A stretch of DNA of 64,000 bases, from positions 130 to 64,129 of the IMG/VR virus record IMGVR_UViG_3300044541_000019. One strand, given 5' to 3'. Below, piece after piece: positions 1 through 64,000 of this stretch. Below the pieces are notes generated by a model. The model was not told the DNA's origin. It ran no database searches and worked only from the letters and a program-made list of their open reading frames with translations. The translations under genes were made by a program, and so were the position numbers. The stretch is from a virus. Taxonomy: Duplodnaviria; Caudoviricetes. Position 1 is the stretch's first letter; each line of letters begins with the position of its first letter.

Positions 1-177
1 GGGTGTCTGGCCCGTGGCAGCATCCATGAATTTGGACCGGTCAAACCGGTCATTGAACGGGGCCACAGCGACCGCTACAGCGCGCGCTACGGTGGCACGC
101 TCCTCTGGCCCCAGGTCGACCGAAGCGATAGCATCGGCGAGCGCTCTGAAATGCTGACGGGTAAGACTGTTACTCAT
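1..177 (-). CDS. hypothetical phage protein, 3' end truncated by window edge (MSNSLTRQHFRALADAIAS...FNDRFDRSKFMDAA)
   Basis: Manually translated; ATG at 177 with GAGGAG RBS; open to position 1. Confidence 0.7.
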   Translation of the reverse strand, partial: MSNSLTRQHFRALADAIASVDLGPEERATVARAVAVAVAPFNDRFDRSKFMDAATGQTP

Positions 178-206
178 GGTGCGGGCTCCTCTCGGGAAAC
201 ACGTCT

Positions 207-234
207 ACCCCCTACCGGGATCCCGGTAGGGGGT
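207..234. repeat. perfect 28-bp palindrome ACCCCCTACCGGGATCCCGGTAGGGGGT
   Basis: Read directly; lies in the leader of the 1..177 gene. Confidence 0.9.
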
Positions 235-279
235 CGCGTCGACAGCAGGCAGCGACTACGGCGTCCCTGCTGCCTCGTG

Positions 280-307
280 CCCTGGGCGCGCTTGATAGCG
301 CCCAGGG
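280..307. promoter_or_regulatory. hairpin with 10-bp stem and GCTTGATA loop (copy 1)
   Basis: CCCTGGGCGC-GCTTGATA-GCGCCCAGGG; same loop at 2292 and 2578. Confidence 0.75.
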
Positions 308-313
308 CGGCAC

Positions 314-508
314 CTAGGCCTGATACCTGGCCATGGTGCGGGTAAAACGGGTACGGGCGCGTCGGAACGCTGTCCGCTGAAACGCTGGCCAGTAAGCATC
401 CATGCCGGCATCGTGTAACAGCTGCCAGGCTTGGTGCGGCTTACCAGCCTGCCAGGCCGCTACTGCGCGCCGTAGCACGCGGTAGCGGCCTGAACGAGAC
501 ATGGTCAC
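314..508 (-). CDS. hypothetical protein, 64 aa
   Basis: ORF track; tightly coupled to neighbouring minus-strand genes. Confidence 0.6.
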   Translation of the reverse strand: MTMSRSGRYRVLRRAVAAWQAGKPHQAWQLLHDAGMDAYWPAFQRTAFRRARTRFTRTMARYQA

Positions 509-795
509 TGACTCACCACGGTGAGAGGCCCGTCGGACGGTACCGGTATCAGGTACTCACCTAGGGTGTCTTCAAGGTCACGGCGCAGGATCGCCGCGCG
601 GGTGCGTTGCTCGGGTGTCAGGCCCAGCTGTAACGGTGCGAGGTCAAGGAACCCCAGTACGGCCCGCACCGATCGGTCTAGGCTCTCTGCGTACCTGCGT
701 CGCTGGCGTGCCTGTAGCCGCGTCGTGGTAACCGCAACCCAGGCAACGTAAGCGACAATCACGGCAATGAATAGGTAACCCAGCACGGTCATCAT
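505..795 (-). CDS. membrane-anchored hypothetical protein (start trimmed to MMTVLGYLF)
   Basis: N-terminal hydrophobic helix; 4-bp overlaps with neighbours. Confidence 0.65.
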   Translation of the reverse strand: MMTVLGYLFIAVIVAYVAWVAVTTTRLQARQRRRYAESLDRSVRAVLGFLDLAPLQLGLTPEQRTRAAILRRDLEDTLGEYLIPVPSDGPLTVVSQ

Positions 796-986
796 CGCTG
801 GCACCCGCCAACGCGCATACCGTCCGTGAGTCCGTCGGCATAGCCCAGCTGGTAACCGTCCACATTGGACGATACCCGCTTGATCATGTCGACGTGCCCA
901 GCTGTCCCGATGGCCAGGGCCAGGATGACTGCCAGGCACGCGGTGAAGACTGCCGGGCCGATGTATCCGGCCATTTTCTTGATCAT
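792..986 (-). CDS. small membrane protein, 64 aa
   Basis: GTAGGGAGA RBS; one TM segment; GYADG motif. Confidence 0.65.
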   Translation of the reverse strand: MIKKMAGYIGPAVFTACLAVILALAIGTAGHVDMIKRVSSNVDGYQLGYADGLTDGMRVGGCQR

Positions 987-1063
987 GATTCTCCCTACTA
1001 ACCGTCCAAAGTGGACAGTCGTGCCCTGGGGACCGGACTGTGAGGGTACCCAGGGACCCTATG

Positions 1064-1360
1064 TCATGCGTCGATACTCACCTGCTCTCTGTCCTCGCTC
1101 ACGGTTACCTGCTTGCTCGGCAACCGTGCGGCTACCTGCCACCGTGTCCAGCGTCCGGCGTGGACAGTGGAGCGTCCTACGTGGCGCGTGACGCGGCGTA
1201 CCGCGTGCGGTGTGGCCACGAACAACGCGAGGATGATCGCGACCAATGCCCGGATTAGCCGACGGTGCGGCCTCTCCTCCGGTGGACGTTGGCTGTAGAT
1301 CAGCAGGTAGGTGATGTGAACAACTCCGGCGTTACTCGCCACGATCAGTATTTCAATCAT
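1064..1360 (-). CDS. membrane protein, 98 aa
   Basis: Two hydrophobic stretches; same strand as cluster. Confidence 0.5.
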   Translation of the reverse strand: MIEILIVASNAGVVHITYLLIYSQRPPEERPHRRLIRALVAIILALFVATPHAVRRVTRHVGRSTVHAGRWTRWQVAARLPSKQVTVSEDREQVSIDA

Positions 1361-1479
1361 GGGTTGCGGGTGTCCTCTCCAATCGGTTGTGCCCGTTACT
1401 CATCCGCCGACGCGGCGAGTAGACACGCTCCCGGGTCAGGCCCAGCTATGGGACCCGGGAGCGATCCACAAGCGACGTA

Positions 1480-1869
1480 CTAGGCCGCTAGCGCCGCGCG
1501 CCAGCCTGCCGTCAGACCCTCCGGTGACCATGTGGGATCACCGTCGTCTGCCGCAGACCAATTGGCCATGAACCCGTGATTTCGAGTCCAGTCGCGACGC
1601 TCGCTGTAGCTGTCGTCATCACCAACCGCGCGGTTGAGTCCGGCACCGTACGGCGTGCCAAACTCAGTCACTTTCACGGCGTCGTCGTACCAGCCTTGCC
1701 CCTTGCTCACCTGGGCTAGGACGCAGCTGTAAGGGTCGTCGATGTCGAACGCATCGGGTGACAGGTCGACCTGCGCGCGCCATCCTGGCGCCTCACGGTT
1801 CAACCACTCGACACCCAGGGCAACTGCCTCGGTGCCGTTGGCGGGCTGTACCGCCGTTGTCTCATCCAT
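1480..1869 (-). CDS. hypothetical protein, 129 aa
   Basis: GTAGGGAGA RBS; globular composition (W..QVDL..FDI.D...CVLAQV). Confidence 0.75.
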   Translation of the reverse strand: MDETTAVQPANGTEAVALGVEWLNREAPGWRAQVDLSPDAFDIDDPYSCVLAQVSKGQGWYDDAVKVTEFGTPYGAGLNRAVGDDDSYSERRDWTRNHGFMANWSAADDGDPTWSPEGLTAGWRAALAA

Positions 1870-1953
1870 GAATCTCCCTACTTGTCCGTCCGTCGGACAT
1901 GCGGCAGGCCGCGCCCCAGCGTGCGGAGCGCGGCCTACCTGATGAGCGACGGA

Positions 1954-2226
1954 CTACAGGACGTCGTACCCGTAGTTGTCGTTCGCGTCGTCGTCGTCGT
2001 CGTCGTCGTCGTTGGCCAACTCGATCATCTCGACCAGCTCGACTTCAGCGGCACCTTCGGCCAGCTCATCGGCGACAGTGTCACCCTGGGCGGTCGCGAG
2101 GGTCTCCGCGAATTCGACCACGGACTCGACTGACGGGAAGTTCTCTCCGTCGTAGCCCATGATTTCCGCGACATTCTCGCGGTCGACGTCGGTCAGGTTC
2201 TCAACGTCGGTCCGAGTGTCGTACAT
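1954..2226 (-). CDS. highly acidic small protein (90 aa, about one third D/E, poly-Asp tail); DNA-mimic candidate
   Basis: GTAGGGAGA RBS before ATG 2226; 30 D/E, 2 R, no K by manual count. Confidence 0.75.
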   Translation of the reverse strand: MYDTRTDVENLTDVDRENVAEIMGYDGENFPSVESVVEFAETLATAQGDTVADELAEGAAEVELVEMIELANDDDDDDDDANDNYGYDVL

Positions 2227-2252
2227 GATGTTTCTCCCTACTACCCGGGCCA

Positions 2253-2268
2253 TGTTTCACGTGAAACA
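2253..2268. promoter_or_regulatory. parS: parS site (TGTTTCACGTGAAACA), copy 1
   Basis: Perfect match to the canonical actinobacterial/Bacillus parS consensus; 20-bp palindrome 2251-2270. Confidence 0.9.
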
Positions 2269-2280
2269 TGTAACCCTCGC

Positions 2281-2310
2281 GTCCGGCTGACGCTTGATAG
2301 TCAGCCGGAC
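2281..2310. promoter_or_regulatory. hairpin with GCTTGATA loop (copy 2)
   Basis: GTCCGGCTGAC-GCTTGATA-GTCAGCCGGAC. Confidence 0.75.
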
Positions 2311-2332
2311 CGGTCCACAAGGGACCATGGTG

Positions 2333-2512
2333 TTACTCGGCGTGCGTGCCAGTGATCACATCGGCACCTTCGGCGAGAGACTCGGAGAGCGTCTCGCCCT
2401 CCACATCCGCGATCATCTCCGCGAATTCGAGTACCTCGCTGGGGTCGGTACCGGTCGCAGCTGCGATAGCCTGCTCGTTCTTGACGTCAGCAGCACTCAG
2501 AGGCTCAGACAT
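2333..2512 (-). CDS. acidic 59-aa protein, paralog of 1954..2226 (not in ORF track)
   Basis: Manual translation MSEPLSAADVKNEQAIAAATGTDPSEVLEFAEMIADVEGETLSESLAEGADVITGTHAE; AAGGGAGA RBS. Confidence 0.7.
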   Translation of the reverse strand: MSEPLSAADVKNEQAIAAATGTDPSEVLEFAEMIADVEGETLSESLAEGADVITGTHAE

Positions 2513-2538
2513 GGTGTATCTCCCTTACTGCCGGGCCA

Positions 2539-2554
2539 TGTTTCACGTGAAACA
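2539..2554. promoter_or_regulatory. parS: parS site, copy 2
   Basis: TGTTTCACGTGAAACA; 20-bp palindrome 2537-2556 within a ~40-bp direct repeat of the copy 1 context. Confidence 0.9.
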
Positions 2555-2566
2555 TGTAACCCTCGC

Positions 2567-2596
2567 GTCCGATCGGCGCTTGATAGCCGACCGGAC
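2567..2596. promoter_or_regulatory. hairpin with GCTTGATA loop (copy 3)
   Basis: GTCCGATCGGC-GCTTGATA-GCCGACCGGAC, one mismatch in stem. Confidence 0.7.
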
Positions 2597-2602
2597 CGAC
2601 GG

Positions 2603-3013
2603 CTAAATGCCGTCAGGTATCACGGTTTCCGCAAACGGCGTATCCACAAGGGACATGTCGTCATTGACCTTACGGTCACAGGTGAACACGCCAGCGTCAC
2701 GGCCCATGCCCGTTGTCAAGCTGGTGAGCTCACACGTGGCCTTGAAATGCTCGGCGAACCCCGCGAGTTTCGCGGTCGCATCCATGACGTCGGGGGCCTC
2801 CCCGTACGCCACGGTGCCGTCCCCCGTGAGCAGCCACACACCCACGCCCCAGCGGAACATGTCCGCCGAGACATTGATGCCGTGGTCTTCGTCGAACCCG
2901 TGAACGGGACATGGCACGTCGTAGGCCAGGTGGTAACTCTCGTCCGGCTCGAACGATCGGAAGATCTCCACCAAATTGCCCCCGGCCAACGCTGCGCGAA
3001 TTGCTTGATCCAT
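2603..3013 (-). CDS. hypothetical protein, 136 aa (start trimmed to MDQAIR)
   Basis: GTAGGGAGA RBS before ATG 3013. Confidence 0.7.
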   Translation of the reverse strand: MDQAIRAALAGGNLVEIFRSFEPDESYHLAYDVPCPVHGFDEDHGINVSADMFRWGVGVWLLTGDGTVAYGEAPDVMDATAKLAGFAEHFKATCELTSLTTGMGRDAGVFTCDRKVNDDMSLVDTPFAETVIPDGI

Positions 3014-3075
3014 GCCGTCTCTCCCTACGGTCGCGCGTCGCTCCCTTGTGGAGCGGCACCCGTGGCGTGCCAGCA

Positions 3076-3091
3076 TGTTTCACGTGAAACA
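3076..3091. promoter_or_regulatory. parS: parS site, copy 3
   Basis: TGTTTCACGTGAAACA inside a 30-bp palindrome 3069-3098. Confidence 0.9.
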
Positions 3092-3113
3092 TGCTGGCCA
3101 CCATGGTCAACCG

Positions 3114-3353
3114 TCAGGCAGCTGCCTTGATCCCCCAAGCGGCAGGCCGTAGCGCGATGATCGGGGGGAAGATGCTGCCCGTAGCCTGTTCGGTGATCCG
3201 CGCCAGCGTCGTGTACCGCGCTACCAGCGCGGAATCATGCTTGTCAGCTGACAGGCCGCGCTTGACGTCCTGGTCAATGCGACGCTGCGCGCAGGCCGCA
3301 CGCTCACGGTAGAGCCGCGCGGTCGCGGTGCGTAGATCCTCGTACTCAAACAT
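3114..3353 (-). CDS. hypothetical protein, 79 aa (MFEYEDL...)
   Basis: AAGGGAGA RBS before ATG 3353. Confidence 0.65.
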   Translation of the reverse strand: MFEYEDLRTATARLYRERAACAQRRIDQDVKRGLSADKHDSALVARYTTLARITEQATGSIFPPIIALRPAAWGIKAAA

Positions 3354-3589
3354 GGTCTCTCCCTTGGTTAGGGCAGCTGCCAGGCTGGGCACCTGCTCTC
3401 CGCACGGTGGAGGAGCGCGGGCCGTGATGCTTAGCCTTCGTCGCTCCCCCGCCATGCTTGCGGGGAGAAGTCTCTATGTGTGTCGATCACTATGGAGGGT
3501 TACCGCAGGCTGCGCGGCTCAATGGTGCCAAGTCCCGATCGGTGGCAACGTGCGTCACGCTCCGTTGCCGTACCGGCCGAACAACCACA

Positions 3590-3618
3590 ACACTACCCCA
3601 GGGGGGGGGAGGTGCCAA
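3590..3618 (-). promoter_or_regulatory. sigma70/HrdB-type promoter TTGGCA-17-TAGTGT with C-rich spacer ending TGGGG
   Basis: Read directly; spacer resembles those of other promoters in the window. Confidence 0.6.
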
Positions 3619-3655
3619 ATGATCAGGGAAAAAAGTCTCTGACCTGGGGAAACGT

Positions 3656-3775
3656 TCAGCTGCCCCCGCCGTAGAAGAATGACCATGGGTCCAGCCCAGC
3701 GGCCACCGTGACCAGGCCGACGAGAATCGTTGTGCTGATCATCGCGCGGATAAACATACGGTGCCATTCACTCAT
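3656..3775 (-). CDS. 39-aa membrane peptide (MSEWHRMFIRAMISTTILVGLVTVAAGLDPWSFFYGGGS)
   Basis: Manual translation; GAGGAG RBS. Confidence 0.55.
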   Translation of the reverse strand: MSEWHRMFIRAMISTTILVGLVTVAAGLDPWSFFYGGGS

Positions 3776-3833
3776 GGTGTGCTCCTCGCTCGATGTCGGC
3801 CCCAGCTGGGCCGACACTCACGGCGTGCTGGCA

Positions 3834-3849
3834 TGTTTCACGTGAAACA
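3834..3849. promoter_or_regulatory. parS: parS site, copy 4
   Basis: TGTTTCACGTGAAACA inside a 30-bp palindrome 3827-3856. Confidence 0.9.
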
Positions 3850-3865
3850 TGCCAGCCACCGTGAT

Positions 3866-4090
3866 TCACCAGGTGCCTAGCTCCTCGCTGACGATTGCCA
3901 TTGCCCCTTCAGCTGAGAGCGCGGCGCGCATGGTTAGCAGGTTGACCGCAGTGGAAGCGATCACCTCCAACGGGATACCCGATTGTGCGGCTATCCGTCG
4001 ACCCATGATCTCCATATCCTCGCTGTCACGTAGCCGGTAGATCTCCGCTTGGATGGCGGCTACCTGCCAGGGGGTCAGGTCAAGATCCAT
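3866..4090 (-). CDS. hypothetical protein, 74 aa
   Basis: AAGGGAGA RBS; TAAGAT -10 element at 4134-4139 upstream. Confidence 0.7.
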   Translation of the reverse strand: MDLDLTPWQVAAIQAEIYRLRDSEDMEIMGRRIAAQSGIPLEVIASTAVNLLTMRAALSAEGAMAIVSEELGTW

Positions 4091-4223
4091 GGTGTCTCCC
4101 TTGCTCCCGTGGCCGGGATATCCGGCCGTGTGAATCTTACCACCCCCCCTCCCTGGGGAATAGGGGGGAGGGGGGGAGCGTTGGACTCTGACGGATCATT
4201 CTGTCTAACGAAAGGAACAAATC

Positions 4224-4316
4224 GTGACAACATCTGAATTGGTGGCAATCGTGGCCGGAATCCTGGCCTTAGTCGCCTGGGTGCGCATCCTGGTCTACGC
4301 GGGTAGGCACCGGTGA
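4224..4316 (+). CDS. 30-aa membrane peptide
   Basis: Manual translation from GTG with AAAGGA RBS; hydrophobic; stop overlaps next start. Confidence 0.45.
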   Translation: MTTSELVAIVAGILALVAWVRILVYAGRHR

Positions 4317-4774
4317 GCGCGCGCGTGTACGCCATTCAAGGCCGTAACGGTGGCTGGTTTGTGGAGCAACGCAGACCGGACGAAGGTAGCGGCACCTGGG
4401 GCCATCCCATCGGCCCCGTGGGGCCACGGTGGCTTGCCGTGGAAGTCTCCAACGCGCTGAACGACGCATACGAGGCTGGGAAGGCGGACGGGTCCAGCGA
4501 CACCGTGACCCGTCTGACTCGTGAGCCCAACGCCGTACCGTGGCATGACCGGCCTTCCCCGCCGTGCCCGGATTGCTCGCGTCCTGACCCGCACACGCAC
4601 GTGGCGTATCCGGGTAAGTACGTCACAGAGGACCGTGACCGTATCGCGGGTATCGCGTACGGTGCCGACCCAACCGACCCCAAACCCCCCCCCCCCCCCC
4701 AACGCCCCAGGTCCCCCGTCCCCGTACGGTCGACCTGGGGCGTTTCTGTGTGCCCTGGGGCAGCTGGACCGTAG
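4313..4774 (+). CDS. hypothetical protein, 153 aa, Pro-rich C-terminus running through the poly-C tract
   Basis: ORF track; N-terminal half looks globular; 3' end depends on homopolymer length. Confidence 0.5.
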   Translation: MSARVYAIQGRNGGWFVEQRRPDEGSGTWGHPIGPVGPRWLAVEVSNALNDAYEAGKADGSSDTVTRLTREPNAVPWHDRPSPPCPDCSRPDPHTHVAYPGKYVTEDRDRIAGIAYGADPTDPKPPPPPQRPRSPVPVRSTWGVSVCPGAAGP

Positions 4775-5000
4775 CCGCGTCTGGCCCCAGCTGGACCGGC
4801 ACCGTGCCCCCGGGCACCGTGCCCCAGCTGACCAGGCTGACCCTGGGGGAGGGGGGCCGAGCCTGCCTCAGGACACCATGATCATTGAGTCAAGATCCTT
4901 GATCTTGATAGATAGACCATGATCGAAGCAAGCGCTTGTTTGTGTTGACCTTTGTATCAAGATCAACGATCATGACTCCCCCCTCATCCCCTCATGATCC
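4685..5000. other. low-complexity junction: C16 run, short CAGCTG/GCACCGTGCCCC repeats, GATC-dense AT-richer patch; candidate genome end, pac site or origin
   Basis: Sequence composition; adjacent to terS-like gene. Confidence 0.4.
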
Positions 5001-5267
5001 AATGCCCCAGGGGATCTTGGCCCCAGGGGCACAACCCGGCAAACCGGACAAAGGGGCAGGCAACAGGCGAACCGGAAAAATCCAAGATCCAGTGGGTGCA
5101 TAGCCCCCTTCCTGATCCCTGGATGTCCCTGTTCCCATGGCTCCTCTTCGATGCCTGTATTGGTTAGCCTTGGCTCAGTACACTGGAACAGGTGTCCTGA
5201 TCCCTGCCCCATCCCCGAGTATCGACTGCATGTTGATATGCATCTTCCCTGCGAGTTCACTGTGGAC

Positions 5268-5591
5268 ATGCAGGAGCTTGAAGCAACTGAGTACGGCATC
5301 GGCGAGGAAGAAGTAGCCACCAGCGCCCCCATGGTGCGGGCTCTGCTCGTGCAGCGACTGGAGCAGATCTGGTCGGTGTGCTCCCCGCATGTGACGGGGG
5401 AGGTGAAGGCTGATCCTCGGTTCATTGAGGCCGGTATCCGGGTGTTGGACCGGCTGGCGAAGCTGTATCGCCTGGATTCCCCGCTCACCCCCAGCGGATC
5501 CAATGACATCGATCCCTCTGGGACAGCTTTGGCTGCGGCAGTGGATCAAGTCGCGGAGCTGGAGGCCCGGATGATGACAGACGGCGTCTAA
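5268..5591 (+). CDS. terminase small subunit-like protein
   Basis: RFIEAGIRVLDRLAKLYRLDSP resembles the 'R.AKLLGLDAP' motif of actinophage small terminases; start uncertain (ORF extends to 5151). Confidence 0.55.
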   Translation: MQELEATEYGIGEEEVATSAPMVRALLVQRLEQIWSVCSPHVTGEVKADPRFIEAGIRVLDRLAKLYRLDSPLTPSGSNDIDPSGTALAAAVDQVAELEARMMTDGV

Positions 5592-5890
5592 TCGCCGCAG
5601 GGGATCTCGGTGACCTCCAGCAGCGCACGCATGCGTCGCATGAAGGGCTGGTACCTGTGCAGGCTGCCCAGTTCCTCCGCGAGCTGTTCCAAGGTGACGC
5701 TGGTACCCGCCACCGCTTCGATCGCGGCACCTCTGACGTACTGAATCAGGGCTAGTTCGTCCTTCGGGCGCCACCCCTTCGCGTAACGCTGCCACCACGC
5801 TCTGTTGATGTAGCAAAGGCTGGGACGAAGGCGCCCAGCCAGCAGCTGAAGCAGTTCGGCGGTACGAGTGGCACGAGTGGCAGCTTCCAT
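5588..5890 (-). CDS. hypothetical protein, ~100 aa
   Basis: ORF track, start trimmed to MEAATR. Confidence 0.45.
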   Translation of the reverse strand: MEAATRATRTAELLQLLAGRLRPSLCYINRAWWQRYAKGWRPKDELALIQYVRGAAIEAVAGTSVTLEQLAEELGSLHRYQPFMRRMRALLEVTEIPCGD

Positions 5891-6033
5891 CTTAGGAATT
5901 TTACTAGAATTTTTCACATGCAACAGACAAAGTACCTGAACCACTTTGCCCAAATGAAGTGCCATAGCTGCCATAGCTGCCACTGAAGTTGTCTAAGCAA
6001 CGATTATGGTGTGGAGGGGAGGGAGGGGGTAGC

Positions 6034-6261
6034 ATGGAGGGTATGAGAATCGAGATTCCTGGGGATGTTCCCCAGGAGAAGCACGACCTCTGGTGCGCTG
6101 TCTTCCGCGCCGGCTACTCCGACATGCGACGGACGTCGTTCAGTGCCCCCAAGATCCGCGAGTCCGAAGCCCTGAAAGACCTGGTTCAACTGGTCCGTGA
6201 GACGTGGCCCGATGCCTACGACGCGGGGGCGTCCAAGGCCTGGAGCGAGGAACAGCAGTGA
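6034..6261 (+). CDS. hypothetical protein beginning MEGMRIEIPG (may start at ATG 6043, possibly leaderless)
   Basis: TAGCAT -10 at 6030; first 34 nt identical to the 63692..63997 gene start. Confidence 0.7.
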   Translation: MEGMRIEIPGDVPQEKHDLWCAVFRAGYSDMRRTSFSAPKIRESEALKDLVQLVRETWPDAYDAGASKAWSEEQQ

Positions 6262-6512
6262 GCTACATACCTGACTTCAGCTTGAACCCGGAGGACAACG
6301 TGTTCCGGGTCGCCCGCAAGTGGATGAAGTTGACTCAGCAACAAGTTGCCGACCGGGCCAGGATCTCCAAAGCCGCCATCAGCCAGTACGAGATGGGCCA
6401 GCACTACCCGTCCGAGCCAACGCTGGACCGGCTGTGCATGGTCCTCCGACTCGACTACGACGACTTAGTGAAGGAGTGCAGAACATGGAAGGACACATCC
6501 GCTACGAGGTGA
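6258..6512 (+). CDS. XRE-family helix-turn-helix regulator
   Basis: LTQQQVADRARISKAAISQYEMGQHYPSEPTLDRL. Confidence 0.9.
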   Translation: MSYIPDFSLNPEDNVFRVARKWMKLTQQQVADRARISKAAISQYEMGQHYPSEPTLDRLCMVLRLDYDDLVKECRTWKDTSATR

Positions 6513-6817
6513 TCAAGCTCAACTGGCTGATCTACATCGTGCAAAGAGTCAGCGCGGACGGCGACTACCGGGACACGCTGCACTGGTTCTTCACCCTGAA
6601 CCGGGCCGAGGCCTGCGCCAAGGGACTGGCCTTCCGCACCTGGTGCAATGACGGACCCATCATGGCGTCCTTTGTCGCCTACATCCCACTAAATCAGGCG
6701 GTGGAGGATGCCGGTCCCGAGTACGTGTGGCCGCAAGCAACGTCGCCTGATCGGATCACCGAGAAGTTCCCCATCGTCACCACCACGGAGGAGCAACATG
6801 ACCAACTACCCCACTGA
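6485..6817 (+). CDS. hypothetical protein, ~110 aa
   Basis: ORF track, start trimmed. Confidence 0.55.
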   Translation: MEGHIRYEVIKLNWLIYIVQRVSADGDYRDTLHWFFTLNRAEACAKGLAFRTWCNDGPIMASFVAYIPLNQAVEDAGPEYVWPQATSPDRITEKFPIVTTTEEQHDQLPH

Positions 6818-9491: not shown

Positions 9492-10040
9492 GTGACAGCG
9501 TTAGAGATCCGCAAGCGGGACTTCGCCACCGACATGCGCAAGCTCATCGACAAGGAACGTTCAGGCAATGGCAGCTACAACGCCAGCGTTCTCGCTCATG
9601 AGATCGCTACCCGACTCCTCACCGAGGACCGGGAGCTGCTGTACGGCTGGCTCGAAGCGCACGCCGTGCCCACCATCCGTGCCGCGATCGTAGCCATCGA
9701 CGCCGCCACCAGGTCATACGCCCGGAAAGGCAACGTGACGTCCCTGTTCGCTGAAGCCGCGAGACAGGCCGAAGGTGGCAACCAGGAACCGCTGCGTCAG
9801 GGTTTCCTGCAGGCCGTGTACGTCATCAACAGCGACAACGACCGTAAGGCGCTCAAGGATATGACAGCTGCAGATGTCCTGTTCGTAGCAGCATCGTACG
9901 AGGACAGGGCGAAGTCAGCGATGCTTGAAGCAGCATTCCTGAGGGCTGTGGCCAAGAAGATTGGACACGGCCGTGTCGCGGACAAGTTCACTAACATCCA
10001 GTTGGCCGAACTGCATTTGCGACTCAAAGGCACAGACTAA
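9492..10040 (+). CDS. helical hypothetical protein, 182 aa, between arrays 1 and 2
   Basis: TAAGGAGG RBS; clean ORF. Confidence 0.85.
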   Translation: MTALEIRKRDFATDMRKLIDKERSGNGSYNASVLAHEIATRLLTEDRELLYGWLEAHAVPTIRAAIVAIDAATRSYARKGNVTSLFAEAARQAEGGNQEPLRQGFLQAVYVINSDNDRKALKDMTAADVLFVAASYEDRAKSAMLEAAFLRAVAKKIGHGRVADKFTNIQLAELHLRLKGTD

Positions 10041-41900: not shown

Positions 41901-44900
41901 GCGGTATCTACGCCACGGATCTTTGGAGCCTCGGGTGCAGTGGGAGCTTCGGGGGCTGCAGCCTTGACTGCCTTCTTCCGTGGCGCAGGCGTGGACAGGT
42001 GGTCCGCCAGACGGTTCAGATACCCCTTCCATTCGTCGCTGCCACTGCTGTTGTCGGCCACGTCGCGCAGGCGCGCTGCTGCCTTCGGGCGAGACAGCTT
42101 CTTGGACGCCACGCCACCAGCGATGAGGTGTAGTCCGGTCTCTTCTACCGGGTTCAGGCTGGCCGGTGGTGCGCCAATGGCCTCATCCCACTGTGCCTTG
42201 ACGCCGTTAGCTGCGTCGTCCCACGTCTTCTGTTCGGCCGCCTTCTTCTCATCGAGACCACTGGCGAGACGCGCGGCATCGGTGTTGGCCGGCGTCGGTG
42301 CAGTCTCGCCTCGGTTGGCAGCCAGCTTCTTAGCGTTGGCTCGATCCTGAGCACGCTCTTCAGGCGTGACCCTGGTACCAGCGGTAGCACGTGTCGCCTT
42401 CGCTGGTGCGGCCGATGGGAAACCACCGCCTTGTTCACGCCAAGCACGCTGGGCCGCATTCTCCCGGGAGGAACGCTTGATCAGGTCCCCGCCCGCGCGC
42501 CGTGGCAGTTTGCCTGGCTCTCGTACTCGCCAGTCACCGGTCTTACCTACTGGCGAGATCAGTTCTTCCCAGACACCGTTGTTTAGGAAGACGTCTCCTG
42601 CGCGAAGATTCTCTGGATCGACTGGTGTGCGGTCACCGCGCGCGCTTTCGAGCCGCGCCCAGGGAGCATCACCGGTAGGAGTGAAGCCGGACGGCTTGGG
42701 TCCTACCAGGTCGGTACGACCCTGGTCTTCATTGATGACAGCCTTCGCTGCTGCCTTCTTCAGGACCGTCGGGACCTCAGGCGTCTCGGCAACCTTGGTC
42801 AGCGCCTTAGCAGCAGGGGTCTTCGGTGCGGCCTTCTTCGCTGCAGGCTTACCCAGTGCCTTGTTGATCGCCTGAGTGACCGCATCGTCGTGACTCAGGC
42901 CGGTGGCGCGGAGGCGGTTGTACTCCTTCTTCTCTGGGTCGGCGAGCTGTCCGTACTCCTCCTTCTGGGCAGCGGACAGCGGAGTCTTCTGCTCCCTGGG
43001 CGCAGCAGCCTTTACGGCTGCCTTCGCCACCTTCTTCACCGGCGGCGCTTCAGGTGCTGCCCCCGGTACAGCCTCCTTCTTGCGCTGTACCGAAGGTGTG
43101 GCCTTCCAGTGTGCTGCCAGCTCCTTAGCCAGGGCGGCCTTCAGCTTGAGCTTCTTGTCCTCGCCACGAGTGTCGATGCCCCACTTCTCGGCTACCGCTC
43201 GCATGTCCCCAACAGATAGTCCATTGAGGCCAGTGAGGATGTTCTTGTCCGTGCGGCCGGCAAGTGCCGCCTCGGCAGCATCCACATTGGGCGGTGCCTT
43301 GGGGGCTGCCTTCTTCAGTGGTACCCGTTTGGCTGGCTTCGAGGTGTCAGCCTCGATCGTGTCAGCGACCCTGCGCAGGTAGAGAGCCTCAGGAGTGGTG
43401 TCACCACCAGCGTGATCCCGCAGTCGGGTAGCGGCCTTAGCTCTGGTGGTGCGACCGTTGCGGAGTAGGTCAGCAGTCTCATCCAGGAGGATGTTGCCGG
43501 CGGTATCGTTCTTCCTCATGCTCGGAGGTTCGTTGCCGATCGCGTCAGCCCACCGGGTGCGCTGTTCCGCGTTGAGCTTGTTGTCCTCGGCGTCCTTTGT
43601 GGCCTGATCAGCCATGGCCTTGGCGCGAGTCTGAGGTGTCCCATCCTTGCGAGGCGGCGCAACCTTCGCCATGGGGCCAGGACGGGCAGCCTCGGCTGCT
43701 GTCTTCTTCGCCCCCGGTACCTTGTCCGAGCCACCAGGAGGACGGATCTGCGCCTTCCGGGCGGCAGCTCCCGCCTTTGCCTGCAACTCGTTCTGGACGT
43801 CAGCCTTCGCCTGACGCTGCTTCGGTTCCCCCAGGTTGAAGTGGGAGCGGATCAGGTCAGCGAGCTTCTCCTGCTTACTGATGTCGTCGGCCAGGGTGGA
43901 GTCACCACGACCGACCTCAGTGTCCTGGAGCTTCTTGTTGGTGGCAATGTCCGCTTCGATCTCGCGGAGCATGTCGGCGGGCTGCTGCTTACCGGACGTG
44001 ATGCCGGTGTAGGCGCTGTTCCATTCCCGGCGGCGCGGACCGCTGGACGGAGATTCCAGGTTCGCCGCGCTCGCCGCGTTTCGGAAGCTGACGGCAGGTT
44101 CCCCGGTGACAACGGAGGTGGCGCCGTTGGGCGGCTCCACGGCAGTCGGTGGTGCTGGCGTCGGAGCCGCTGGAGTAGGGACCGCTGGAGCGTTGGCTTC
44201 TGGTACGTTCGCAGCCTGGGGCGTTGGTACTGGCGCACTCGGCGCAGCGGGGGCAGCCGGTGTTCCTGCTGGCGCTGGTGTTGGTGCTGCTGGTGCTGGC
44301 GTAGGTCCCGCCGCTGGCTGAGCCGGTGTAGCGGCGGGACGTCCCAGAACTGCAGCACGTCGGGCGGCTCGGACCTGCTCAGGAGTCTGACCCTCTGGCG
44401 GCGTCCCAGCTGCCTCGCCCGGAAGGGCGCCAAGGGGCTGGCTACCCATCTCCCGCTTGGTGGCAGCGTCTTCCAGAGCCTTGACCGCTGCTTCACGGTT
44501 GCCGGGGACGCCAGCGCCCTGATGTCCTACGCCCGTAGTCTCTGGCGTAGCTCCAGGAGTCTTGGGAGTGGCCACCGCCCACATGTAGTAGCCACCGCGA
44601 CCATCAGGCTTGACCTTGGTGATGGTCAGCTCTTGGTCCCGGTCAAAGAACATGCCCCGGTCGGTGCCACTCCGGGCAGGGACAGCCATTCTGGTGCCCT
44701 TGGGGGTGGCAATGGACATGGTGACCAGTCCCTGCCCACCGCCCAGGGGGGTGCCGATGTTGGCCGCACCGTAGCCACGGTCGGCGACAACATTGCCGGT
44801 CATTTCCTCCAGTTCGGGCAAACGCTCAGGAGTCAGACCGAAAGCGTCAGGACCCACAGTTCTGGACACAATGATGTCGTCGGGGATGGGCTGCATTTCA

Positions 44901-60279: not shown

Positions 60280-61107
60280 ATGCATAAACCACTCATGGTC
60301 CCCATTGAATCGATCATTACAGAGCGCTCCCTGGAACACGGGGATGACCTGACAGACCTGACGAATAACATCTTCTCGGGGAAACTCAAGCGTCCCATTC
60401 TTGTCGACGAGAACATGAAACTCCTCGACGGATTACGGCGGCTCACAGCCCTGAAAAGCCTGGGTGCCGAAAAGGTTCAAATAGCTCTGTCGACTTCACT
60501 GGAGGACACCTGCGAAGAAATAGCCAAGACAGTCAAGCACGGAGTCCTGGCTTCGCCTCCTAGTCCACATAGGACTTGGGCACTTTTCCAGGACACCAAG
60601 GAACAGCAGAAAGATCGTGGTATCCGAATGCGCAAGCGTCGCGTCGGCATACCACGTGGCACAGTCCTAGAACCAGTACCCCGGACTCGCACCATGATGA
60701 ACGAGGCGCTGGGACTTGGGCCAGGAGAGTCTTACCTGGCCTCGGTCACCTACCTGTATAGCCACTTCCTGAACAACACTGACCCCGGTCTAGCACTAGG
60801 CCTGGCCGACATCCGGGCTCGCCTGGAGCACCACCAGTTGTCTGTCTATGAGGCACGGGGCGCAGTGGACAGGCTCAGGTCAAGTGGACTGACAGGAGAC
60901 ATTGTCAGTGTTGCTGCTCAGCGCGATGCTCTTGCTACCGCACTGTCACAGCTGTCTGGAATGAATAAGGGAGTGACCCGAATCGGGGAACTGAACCCTG
61001 AAATCAACCAGGCTGAACTACTCGCCTACATCAAGAGTTTCGAACAAGGAAAGCGTGCCCTACACGCCTTCATCAACACCCTCAAGAAAAGGATCAGTAA
61101 GGAATGA
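60280..61107 (+). CDS. ParB/Srx N-terminal domain protein
   Basis: L..SI...L.RPILVD....LLDGLRRLTAL (GxRRxxA box). Confidence 0.8.
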   Translation: MHKPLMVPIESIITERSLEHGDDLTDLTNNIFSGKLKRPILVDENMKLLDGLRRLTALKSLGAEKVQIALSTSLEDTCEEIAKTVKHGVLASPPSPHRTWALFQDTKEQQKDRGIRMRKRRVGIPRGTVLEPVPRTRTMMNEALGLGPGESYLASVTYLYSHFLNNTDPGLALGLADIRARLEHHQLSVYEARGAVDRLRSSGLTGDIVSVAAQRDALATALSQLSGMNKGVTRIGELNPEINQAELLAYIKSFEQGKRALHAFINTLKKRISKE

Positions 61108-61919
61108 GTAAAGCCACCGAGGTGTTCGAAGACCTCGATCTTCCAGTGAATGAGCTGGAAATCGACCGTCGCGTTCAGCGAACGGGCATCAATCTGGCGA
61201 AGGTTGCCAGGATGGTCAAGAACTACAACCCCGCTGCGGTCGGCACGATCACTGTGTCAGTGCGCAAGGACCGCTCCAAGATCATCATAGATGGTCAGCA
61301 CCGCTGGGAAGCCACCCGCCGGGTAACGGACAACGCGGGCACCATCAATGCCCACGTGTTCCACGGCCTGACCCTGGCCGAGGAAGCACAGATGTTCCTC
61401 GACTTGAACGACACCACGCAGCCTCCGGTGATCGACAAGTTCAAGGTCAGCCTGAACACGGACGGCCCTGAAGGTGACACAGCCCGCGATATCCAGGAGA
61501 TCCTGGGGAACTACGGCTGGACCATCAGCAACATCCCCGCCAACGGCAACGTCAACTGCGTCAAGGTCGTAGAGCGCGTGTACGCCCTGTCCCAGAAGAT
61601 CGAAGCCGACCCGAGCCTCATCCAGGTCACCATCCTGGTTGTCACCCGGGCCTGGGGCAACGACCGGTTCGGCGCACAGGGTCCTGTCTTCGAAGGCATC
61701 GCCCGGATGTTCGCCGAGTACGGCAGCCGGCTCGATCTGGACCGCCTGATCGACGTCATGAAGTCCTTCGCCGGACCTCGTGCGCTGATCGCTGAGGCCA
61801 CCGGCCTCGCGGCCATCCGTAAGGGCAAGGTGTCCATGGGCGTCGCAGAGATGCTGGTGGAGGCCTACAACAAGGGCCGCCGCTCGCGTCAGCTGGAGGC
61901 CTGGAGGGCTCGGCGGTAA
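61104..61919 (+). CDS. second ParB-like protein (DGQHR / DUF6551 type)
   Basis: IDRRVQR...G.ITVS.R....IIDGQHRWEA...EEAQMF..LN. Confidence 0.8.
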   Translation: MSKATEVFEDLDLPVNELEIDRRVQRTGINLAKVARMVKNYNPAAVGTITVSVRKDRSKIIIDGQHRWEATRRVTDNAGTINAHVFHGLTLAEEAQMFLDLNDTTQPPVIDKFKVSLNTDGPEGDTARDIQEILGNYGWTISNIPANGNVNCVKVVERVYALSQKIEADPSLIQVTILVVTRAWGNDRFGAQGPVFEGIARMFAEYGSRLDLDRLIDVMKSFAGPRALIAEATGLAAIRKGKVSMGVAEMLVEAYNKGRRSRQLEAWRARR

Positions 61920-63521: not shown

Positions 63522-63699
63522 GAAGGTAACCCTCTCGTTCTAGTTGTATGGGGCAGACGCAGCCGGGCTCGCCTACCTCCTGCTGGCGGTACCAGCACCA
63601 GGTGTTGAACTCGTTGGGCTTGCGATGCCATCGCCACACAGCCTTCTCCTCTCCTGTGTTGGGGCGGTAGGGCTTGGTGGATTTGTACCTTCTAGGCAT
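63448..63699 (-). CDS. hypothetical Cys-containing protein
   Basis: ORF track. Confidence 0.45.
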   Translation of the reverse strand: MPRRYKSTKPYRPNTGEEKAVWRWHRKPNEFNTWCWYRQQEVGEPGCVCPIQLEREGYLRVRATDTCASYFRGRTIAPTDEAA

Positions 63700-63997
63700 T
63701 GAGGAGAGATCCCTCCCGAGCCTCAGTGATTGAGGTCCTCCGGTTCCACGGTTGTGCTCGCAGAGCCAGGACTGCTTGTTCCTCGCTGAGAAGGAGTGGC
63801 AGCGCAGCGGAGATGACCCGGATGGCGCGGACCGACGGGCGGTAGTGCCCCGACTCGATCATCCCCAGCGCTCCAGTACTCATGCCGGATATCTCGCCCA
63901 ACTGCTTCTGGGTCAGGCCGGCTTGGACGCGGAAGTTGCGTAGCGCCTCACCTTCGGGACTTCTGCCCCCAGGAATCTCGATTCTCATACCCTCCAT
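63692..63997 (-). CDS. XRE-family HTH regulator beginning MEGMRIEIPG
   Basis: LRNFRVQAGLTQKQLGEISGMSTGALGMIESGHYRPS. Confidence 0.9.
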   Translation of the reverse strand: MEGMRIEIPGGRSPEGEALRNFRVQAGLTQKQLGEISGMSTGALGMIESGHYRPSVRAIRVISAALPLLLSEEQAVLALRAQPWNRRTSITEAREGSLLNA

Positions 63998-64000
63998 GCT

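Follow-up and report, generated by a model that had tools for sequence, protein, structure and literature searches.

According to the account given in PMC2731898, phage phi29 carries five parS sites, and the host protein Spo0J has been implicated in the transfer of the phi29 genome to the prespore. On bacterial chromosomes, the 16-mer TGTTTCACGTGAAACA is the perfect parS of both M. tuberculosis and B. subtilis (PMC2346475). A single parS in C. glutamicum loads ParB over +/-16 kb and also loads SMC, and is enough for SMC-dependent folding of the chromosome (PMC7083940). Dedrick et al. 2016, a paper cited in PMC12704722, describes actinobacteriophage parABS systems in its title as diverse and specific. 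As far as our literature searches reached, experimental work on host-type parS in phages is confined to phi29 and Nf, and the searches returned no paper on host-type parS in actinophages. The parS of the actinobacteriophage parABS systems reportedly differ from those of their hosts.

The phage studied here, referred to as G000, is a 64,129-bp IMG/VR record rated complete, of which bases 130-64129 were analysed (64,000 bases, hereafter the window). Exactly four perfect copies of TGTTTCACGTGAAACA are present in the window, starting at positions 2253, 2539, 3076 and 3834, which recovers the four sites listed in an earlier note on this DNA. The chance expectation is a mean of 0.01 copies, as estimated from 100 shuffles, none of which reached four. 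That the window holds no other copy, as the same note had stated, was also the outcome when up to two mismatches were allowed in the 64,000 bases, and there was no fifth copy in the whole 64,129-bp record. All four sites match the 16-bp palindrome TGTTNCACGTGAAACA of chromosomal-type parS at 16 of 16 positions, and their initial identification as chromosomal parS is borne out by identity to the perfect parS quoted in PMC2346475.

Each of the sites is intergenic and located between minus-strand genes, in the spacers of a leftward operon of about 12 small genes (1-4090, minus strand) that yielded no Pfam or PHROG match. Site 1 (2253-2268) is contained in a 20-bp perfect palindrome at 2251-2270, 26 nt upstream of the start of the gene at 1954-2226 (minus strand), and site 2 (2539-2554) in a 20-bp perfect palindrome at 2537-2556, also 26 nt upstream of the start of a minus-strand gene (2333-2512). 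Sites 3 (3076-3091) and 4 (3834-3849) are central in 30-bp perfect palindromes at 3069-3098 and 3827-3856, with the outer arms GCCAGC/GCTGGC and GCTGGC/GCCAGC, respectively, such that the outer arms of site 4 are compensatory relative to those of site 3. The sites are upstream of the next start codon by 26, 26, 62 and 58 nt from site 1 to site 4, and the distances from the previous stop codon to the site are 64, 48, 22 and 16 nt. Both the placement in gene leaders and the extension to palindromes of 20-30 bp had been described correctly in the earlier note. Sites 1 and 2 are within a duplicated cassette of about 100 nt (81% identical) and sites 3 and 4 within a duplicated 76-nt cassette (75% identical), and the four sites therefore do not represent independent events.

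The genes downstream of sites 1 and 2 (1954-2226 and 2333-2512) are very acidic paralogues, one of which ends in a run of Asp, and they were duplicated along with their hairpin-parS-RBS cassette. Within the same operon, a segment of about 300 nt (3354-3655) contains no convincing ORF or Rfam match, and a run of 9 G is found at 3601-3609. The segment that separates the divergent genes starting at 4090 and 4224 contains a C-rich/G-rich hairpin (4141-4180), and a run of about 16 C at about 4685-4700 is inside the ORF 4325-4774. The parS-bearing block of small genes adjoins Cro/CI-type HTH genes. Capture of the block from a host was considered and ruled out since its genes lack homologues in hosts and cassette duplication within the phage gave rise to the sites.

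G000 is a tailed phage with genes for the large terminase, portal, major tail protein and head-tail adaptor, and it also encodes a D5_N primase-helicase, RusA, an actinobacterial holin-X, a DUF397 protein and two Cro/CI-type HTH genes. The relatives of the portal protein are almost all from actinophages (877 records), the best of them from Actinoplanes phage phiAsp2 (33% identity), while the DUF397 domain is nearest to those of Umezawaea, Actinomadura and Spirillospora. Together, the portal relatives and the DUF397 domain point weakly to a filamentous actinomycete as the host. No parS was found in the first 50 kb of phiAsp2, the closest cultured relative. Four genomes of filamentous actinomycetes, 6-11 Mb in size, each contain only 4-6 copies of the 14-mer core GTTTCACGTGAAAC, which are invariably grouped next to parB in a stretch of about 0.7-4 kb. 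The phage cluster, with four sites in 1.6 kb, matches those of these genomes in copy number and density and so has the dimensions of a host centromere.

We compared the parS block with two related contigs, referred to as G001 (64,011 bp) and G002 (63,230 bp). G001 contains four sites in the equivalent block, three of them perfect and one reading GGTTTCACGTGAAACC, all just upstream of start codons, and G002 contains two sites, one in a leader and one in the portal gene. Only two of 14 tested genes of the block had a detectable homologue in G001 and only one in G002, so that almost all neighbouring genes have been replaced and yet the sites are retained; the sites outlast their neighbours. The 14-bp core is identical in 10 of 10 sites from the three phages and the 16-mer is perfect in nine. 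No other palindrome or 11-mer is repeated as often as parS in G000 and G001. The portal gene site of G002 (43675-43690) reads GTTGTTTCACGTGAAACA, where the portal genes of both G000 and G001 have ATCATCTCCGACGAAGCA. This perfect parS was made by about 8 base changes relative to the two sister phages, three of which alter the protein (II>VV, D>R and A>T), and it is coding and has no palindromic extension. The new site points to selection acting on the DNA site as such, regardless of its position, and speaks against any role tied solely to leaders or hairpins. Several host-consensus sites are thus found on a phage genome, and they appear to be kept by selection, judging from the conservation in G001 and G002 and from the new portal site. 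Searches for more relatives were less productive: megablast and blastn of positions 1-6000 gave no match among deposited phages, and the search for relatives with the parS block by way of the ParB-like protein described below returned only fragments ending at the repeat or distant phages that have no parS.

The earlier note had listed two phage ParB-like proteins, and both exist, although neither is canonical. One is a 275-aa ParB/Noc-like protein (60280-61107, plus strand) whose N-terminal ParB/sulfiredoxin fold is followed by a middle domain of helices and, at the C-terminus, by a helical hairpin; the other is a 271-aa protein with a DGQHR motif (61104-61919, plus strand) that matches DUF6551, DndB and the PHROG 'ParB-like partition protein'. 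No direct relationship between the two was detected with hhalign. There was no match to Pfam ParB_N or HTH_ParB on G000, for HTH_ParB not even at E 1, and neither an integrase nor a ParA was found among about 115 ORFs scanned. For the 275-aa protein, five of seven homologues were pre-annotated as PF02195, and a profile of the homologues matches the N-domains of Noc and ParB at E 4e-8. Its AlphaFold model (pLDDT 79) gave Z values of about 10 to the N-domains of ParB, Noc and sulfiredoxin, with about 70 residues aligned at an rmsd of about 2.1 Å (VIA Z 9.2-10.5), and it also aligns over 146-171 residues to Noc, pNOB8 ParB and KorB. The CTP-binding GERR box (GERRxRA) reads DGLRR in this protein, and throughout the family the box is an invariant DGLRRLxA, which retains both arginines but lacks the glutamate. 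No canonical ParB or ParA was thus found on the phage, which encodes two divergent proteins of the ParB superfamily, neither of them a canonical parS-binding ParB. Nor does it have a parABS cassette, in which parA and parB adjoin an element-specific parS: no ParA was found, the sites are of host type, and the genes for the ParB-like proteins are about 6-8 kb away from them on the circular map proposed below.

With two such proteins on the phage, the binder of the sites could be the phage's own. According to this explanation the 275-aa protein is the relevant binder and forms a private clamp or partition complex, possibly occupying the host centromere too. The fold and profile matches above are in its favour, as is an hhalign probability of 95% over residues 2-179 against the ParBs of four actinomycete genomes, in which a T.EQ...R..R.R stretch of the phage protein is aligned to the ParB HTH. 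Furthermore, the gene is common to all three parS-bearing phages, and G000 has no repeated palindrome other than parS. However, the alignment shows no conservation of the ParB recognition-helix residues (xxTNxxRLL), HTH_ParB gave no match, and the protein differs by about 50% among the three phages whereas the site is invariant and identical to that of the host. parS is absent from a complete 55-kb phage that encodes a 27%-identical homologue, and phi29, with the same site, is reported to rely on host Spo0J. The phage protein is the main rival to host ParB as the binder, and we regard it as an unlikely one. A tblastn search with the ParB-like protein gave no match among deposited phages.

A more elaborate version, which we consider distinctly unlikely, is that the DGLRR protein would load at the parS sites of host ParB, such that a private clamp forms on the phage DNA, the host centromere is occupied or poisoned, and the palindromes serve as a switch. 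The protein has the DGLRR box and neither the catalytic glutamate nor a ParA-binding peptide, and its clamp would possibly be non-hydrolysing. As a switch, the long palindromes could respond to supercoiling or transcription and so conceal or uncover parS.

Recruitment of host ParB is the best reading of the sites, given their identity to parS, their conservation despite gene turnover and the finding of no canonical ParB or ParA on the phage. The four palindromes are probably chromosomal-type parS that act in cis as loading sites for the ParB of the host. The earlier note had proposed that the phage recruits host ParB, and the proposal stands as the best reading, with phi29 as a precedent (PMC2731898), but with the ParB/Noc-like protein of the phage added as a possible binder. 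Once the phage DNA is inside the cell, dimers of host ParB would bind to the four parS, turn into closed CTP clamps and spread by sliding onto the adjacent phage DNA. This would produce a centromere-like ParB complex on the phage genome, open to host ParA, SMC or both, the action of which would serve its positioning, segregation or carriage, in the manner of phi29. With growing numbers of phage copies, more and more host ParB would also be bound by their sites. The benefit to the phage may be positioning or segregation, the loading of SMC, titration or silencing. Host ParB binding and everything downstream of it is what we infer from five observations: the parS identity, the non-random occurrence, the conservation under turnover, the new site in a relative and the search that found no canonical ParB or ParA.

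The sites in the leaders are surrounded by further potential for secondary structure. Site 1 is separated from the previous stop codon by a hairpin with the conserved loop TATCAAGC (2281-2310, minus strand), of which another copy (2567-2596) precedes site 2, and the same layout of hairpin and parS is seen in G001 at its site 60262. Site 3 has its second hairpin at 3037-3057 (minus strand), between the site and the next RBS, and the counterpart at site 4 (3795-3815) differs in the sequence of the stem. The four parS spacers fold as tandem hairpins far better than shuffled sequences (z -4.4 to -7.5). The palindrome reaches 2-7 bp past the 16-mer in nine of the ten sites of the three phages, with different arms (GCCAGCA, GCTGGCA, GGGCCA and GTT), and our reading is that parS sites have been placed at the tips of pre-existing intergenic hairpins.

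The long, strongly folding hairpins with compensatory outer arms suggest an added or alternative role as structure. In the alternative form, the palindromes would act chiefly as RNA hairpins, in termination, processing or stability, or as DNA cruciforms, and the parS identity would be secondary. While the varied arms are in line with this, as is the second hairpin that accompanies each site and varies in stem sequence from copy to copy, a stem would be expected to covary, and a structural role cannot account for the invariant core. The portal site of G002, coding and not extended, does not fit either, nor does the occurrence of the same 16-mer in unrelated phages, often inside genes. A scan of positions 1-6600 for sigma-70 promoters and terminators found nothing at the parS sites, including no T-tract terminator, and an Rfam search of the same segment gave matches at chance level only, with no family at the sites. 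We consider it highly improbable that the palindromes act chiefly as structure, although the hairpins may have a structural role alongside ParB binding.

Another explanation accepts that host ParB binds but holds that the selected effect is regulation, such that clamps spreading from the leader sites would damp or time the leftward operon. All four sites of G000 and all four of G001 are placed just before start codons, and repression by ParB of promoters adjacent to parS is described for Pseudomonas aeruginosa in PMC5521831. However, no promoter-like element overlaps any of the sites, G002 has only one leader site, the other being in the portal gene, and cultured relatives carry their sites inside structural genes. 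Regulation as the selected effect is thus very unlikely, and loading of host ParB as such is the reading that we retain.

The parS block appears to be flanked by inverted repeats of 1.2-1.4 kb. A repeat of about 1.4 kb is located at 4658-6064 in G000, and both ends of the contig are inverted copies of its two edges (63967-64000, and the 30 bases that open the record and precede the window), which implies a second, inverted copy beyond the parS block. Likewise, both ends of G001 and G002 are, as in G000, exact or near-exact inverted copies of internal sequence, the pairs being 1-121/57155-57275 and 58258-58326/63943-64011 in G001 and 1-96/57161-57256 and 58403-58513/63120-63230 in G002. On the circular map that these pairs suggest, the repeats flank a parS block of 4.6-5.6 kb; the true genome would be about 65.5 kb in size if the map holds, and the block could flip by recombination. 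An inversion of the block between G000 and G001 was considered and dropped, since the repeat is collapsed in the short-read assemblies and such contigs cannot fix the orientation.

The outer edge of the repeat (6034-6064 and 63967-63997) includes the start codons of two outward-reading genes, both of which therefore begin with M(EG)MRIEIPG. One of these (63692-63988) is a Cro/CI-type HTH gene, and the other (6034-6261) is followed by a gene of this type at 6300-6512. An AT-rich and GATC-rich imperfect palindrome inside the repeat (4887-4978) contains TTGACC-17-GATCAT (4945-4973), the sole match to a sigma-70-like promoter in the left 6.6 kb, and is a candidate control region or origin that would be present twice in the genome.

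Host-type parS occur in many other phage genomes. The perfect 16-mer is present in more than 119 IMG/VR stretches, and when 30 nt around site 1 were used as the query, 441 records of deposited phages matched, among them 64 from Microbacterium, 34 from Arthrobacter and 25 from Gordonia phages. Arthrobacter phage Ranunculus (PQ362686.1) has three parS, at 9785, 10900 and 11995, Arthrobacter phage VroomVroom (OQ938592.1) has six, and Microbacterium phage Ariadne (NC_073374.1) has one, at 44080. All of these are perfect or core-perfect, and most of the sites checked are inside genes. The Arthrobacter and Microbacterium hosts do not sporulate, and entrapment in spores can therefore not be the general reason for carrying such sites. 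These cultured phages with growable hosts make it testable what a lytic-looking phage gains from host ParB, ParA or SMC, with the co-encoded ParB-like protein of G000 as a natural candidate modulator. The principle is already known from phi29 and Nf, and the idea is less novel than the earlier note assumed. What G000 and its relatives add is evidence from actinophage sequences for selection, in the persistence of the sites through gene turnover and in the new portal site.

Compared with the chromosomal parS clusters of actinomycetes (C. glutamicum, PMC7083940; Mycobacterium, PMC2346475), the phage sites have the same 16 bp, a mostly intergenic location and a similar copy number and density, but they are located on a virus and do not adjoin parAB or oriC. 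The actinobacteriophages with parABS cassettes (Dedrick et al. 2016), as they are presented in the citing papers PMC8612146 and PMC12704722, resemble G000 in having centromere-like repeats and no integrase; they encode their own ParA and ParB, whereas in G000 no ParA and no canonical ParB were found and the site is that of the host. The closest likeness is to phi29 and Nf, for which PMC2731898 summarises the work of Meijer et al. 2005. In that summary they too have several host-type parS, they lack canonical partition genes, of which none was found in G000, and host ParB (Spo0J) is their reported partner. The cultured relatives with such sites infect non-sporulating hosts. G000 differs from phi29 and Nf, as these are summarised there, in that its probable host belongs to the phylum Actinomycetota and in that its sites are clustered in 1.6 kb whereas theirs are spread along the genome. 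It differs further in that its sites are placed at the tips of long intergenic hairpins and in that it encodes two divergent proteins of the ParB superfamily.
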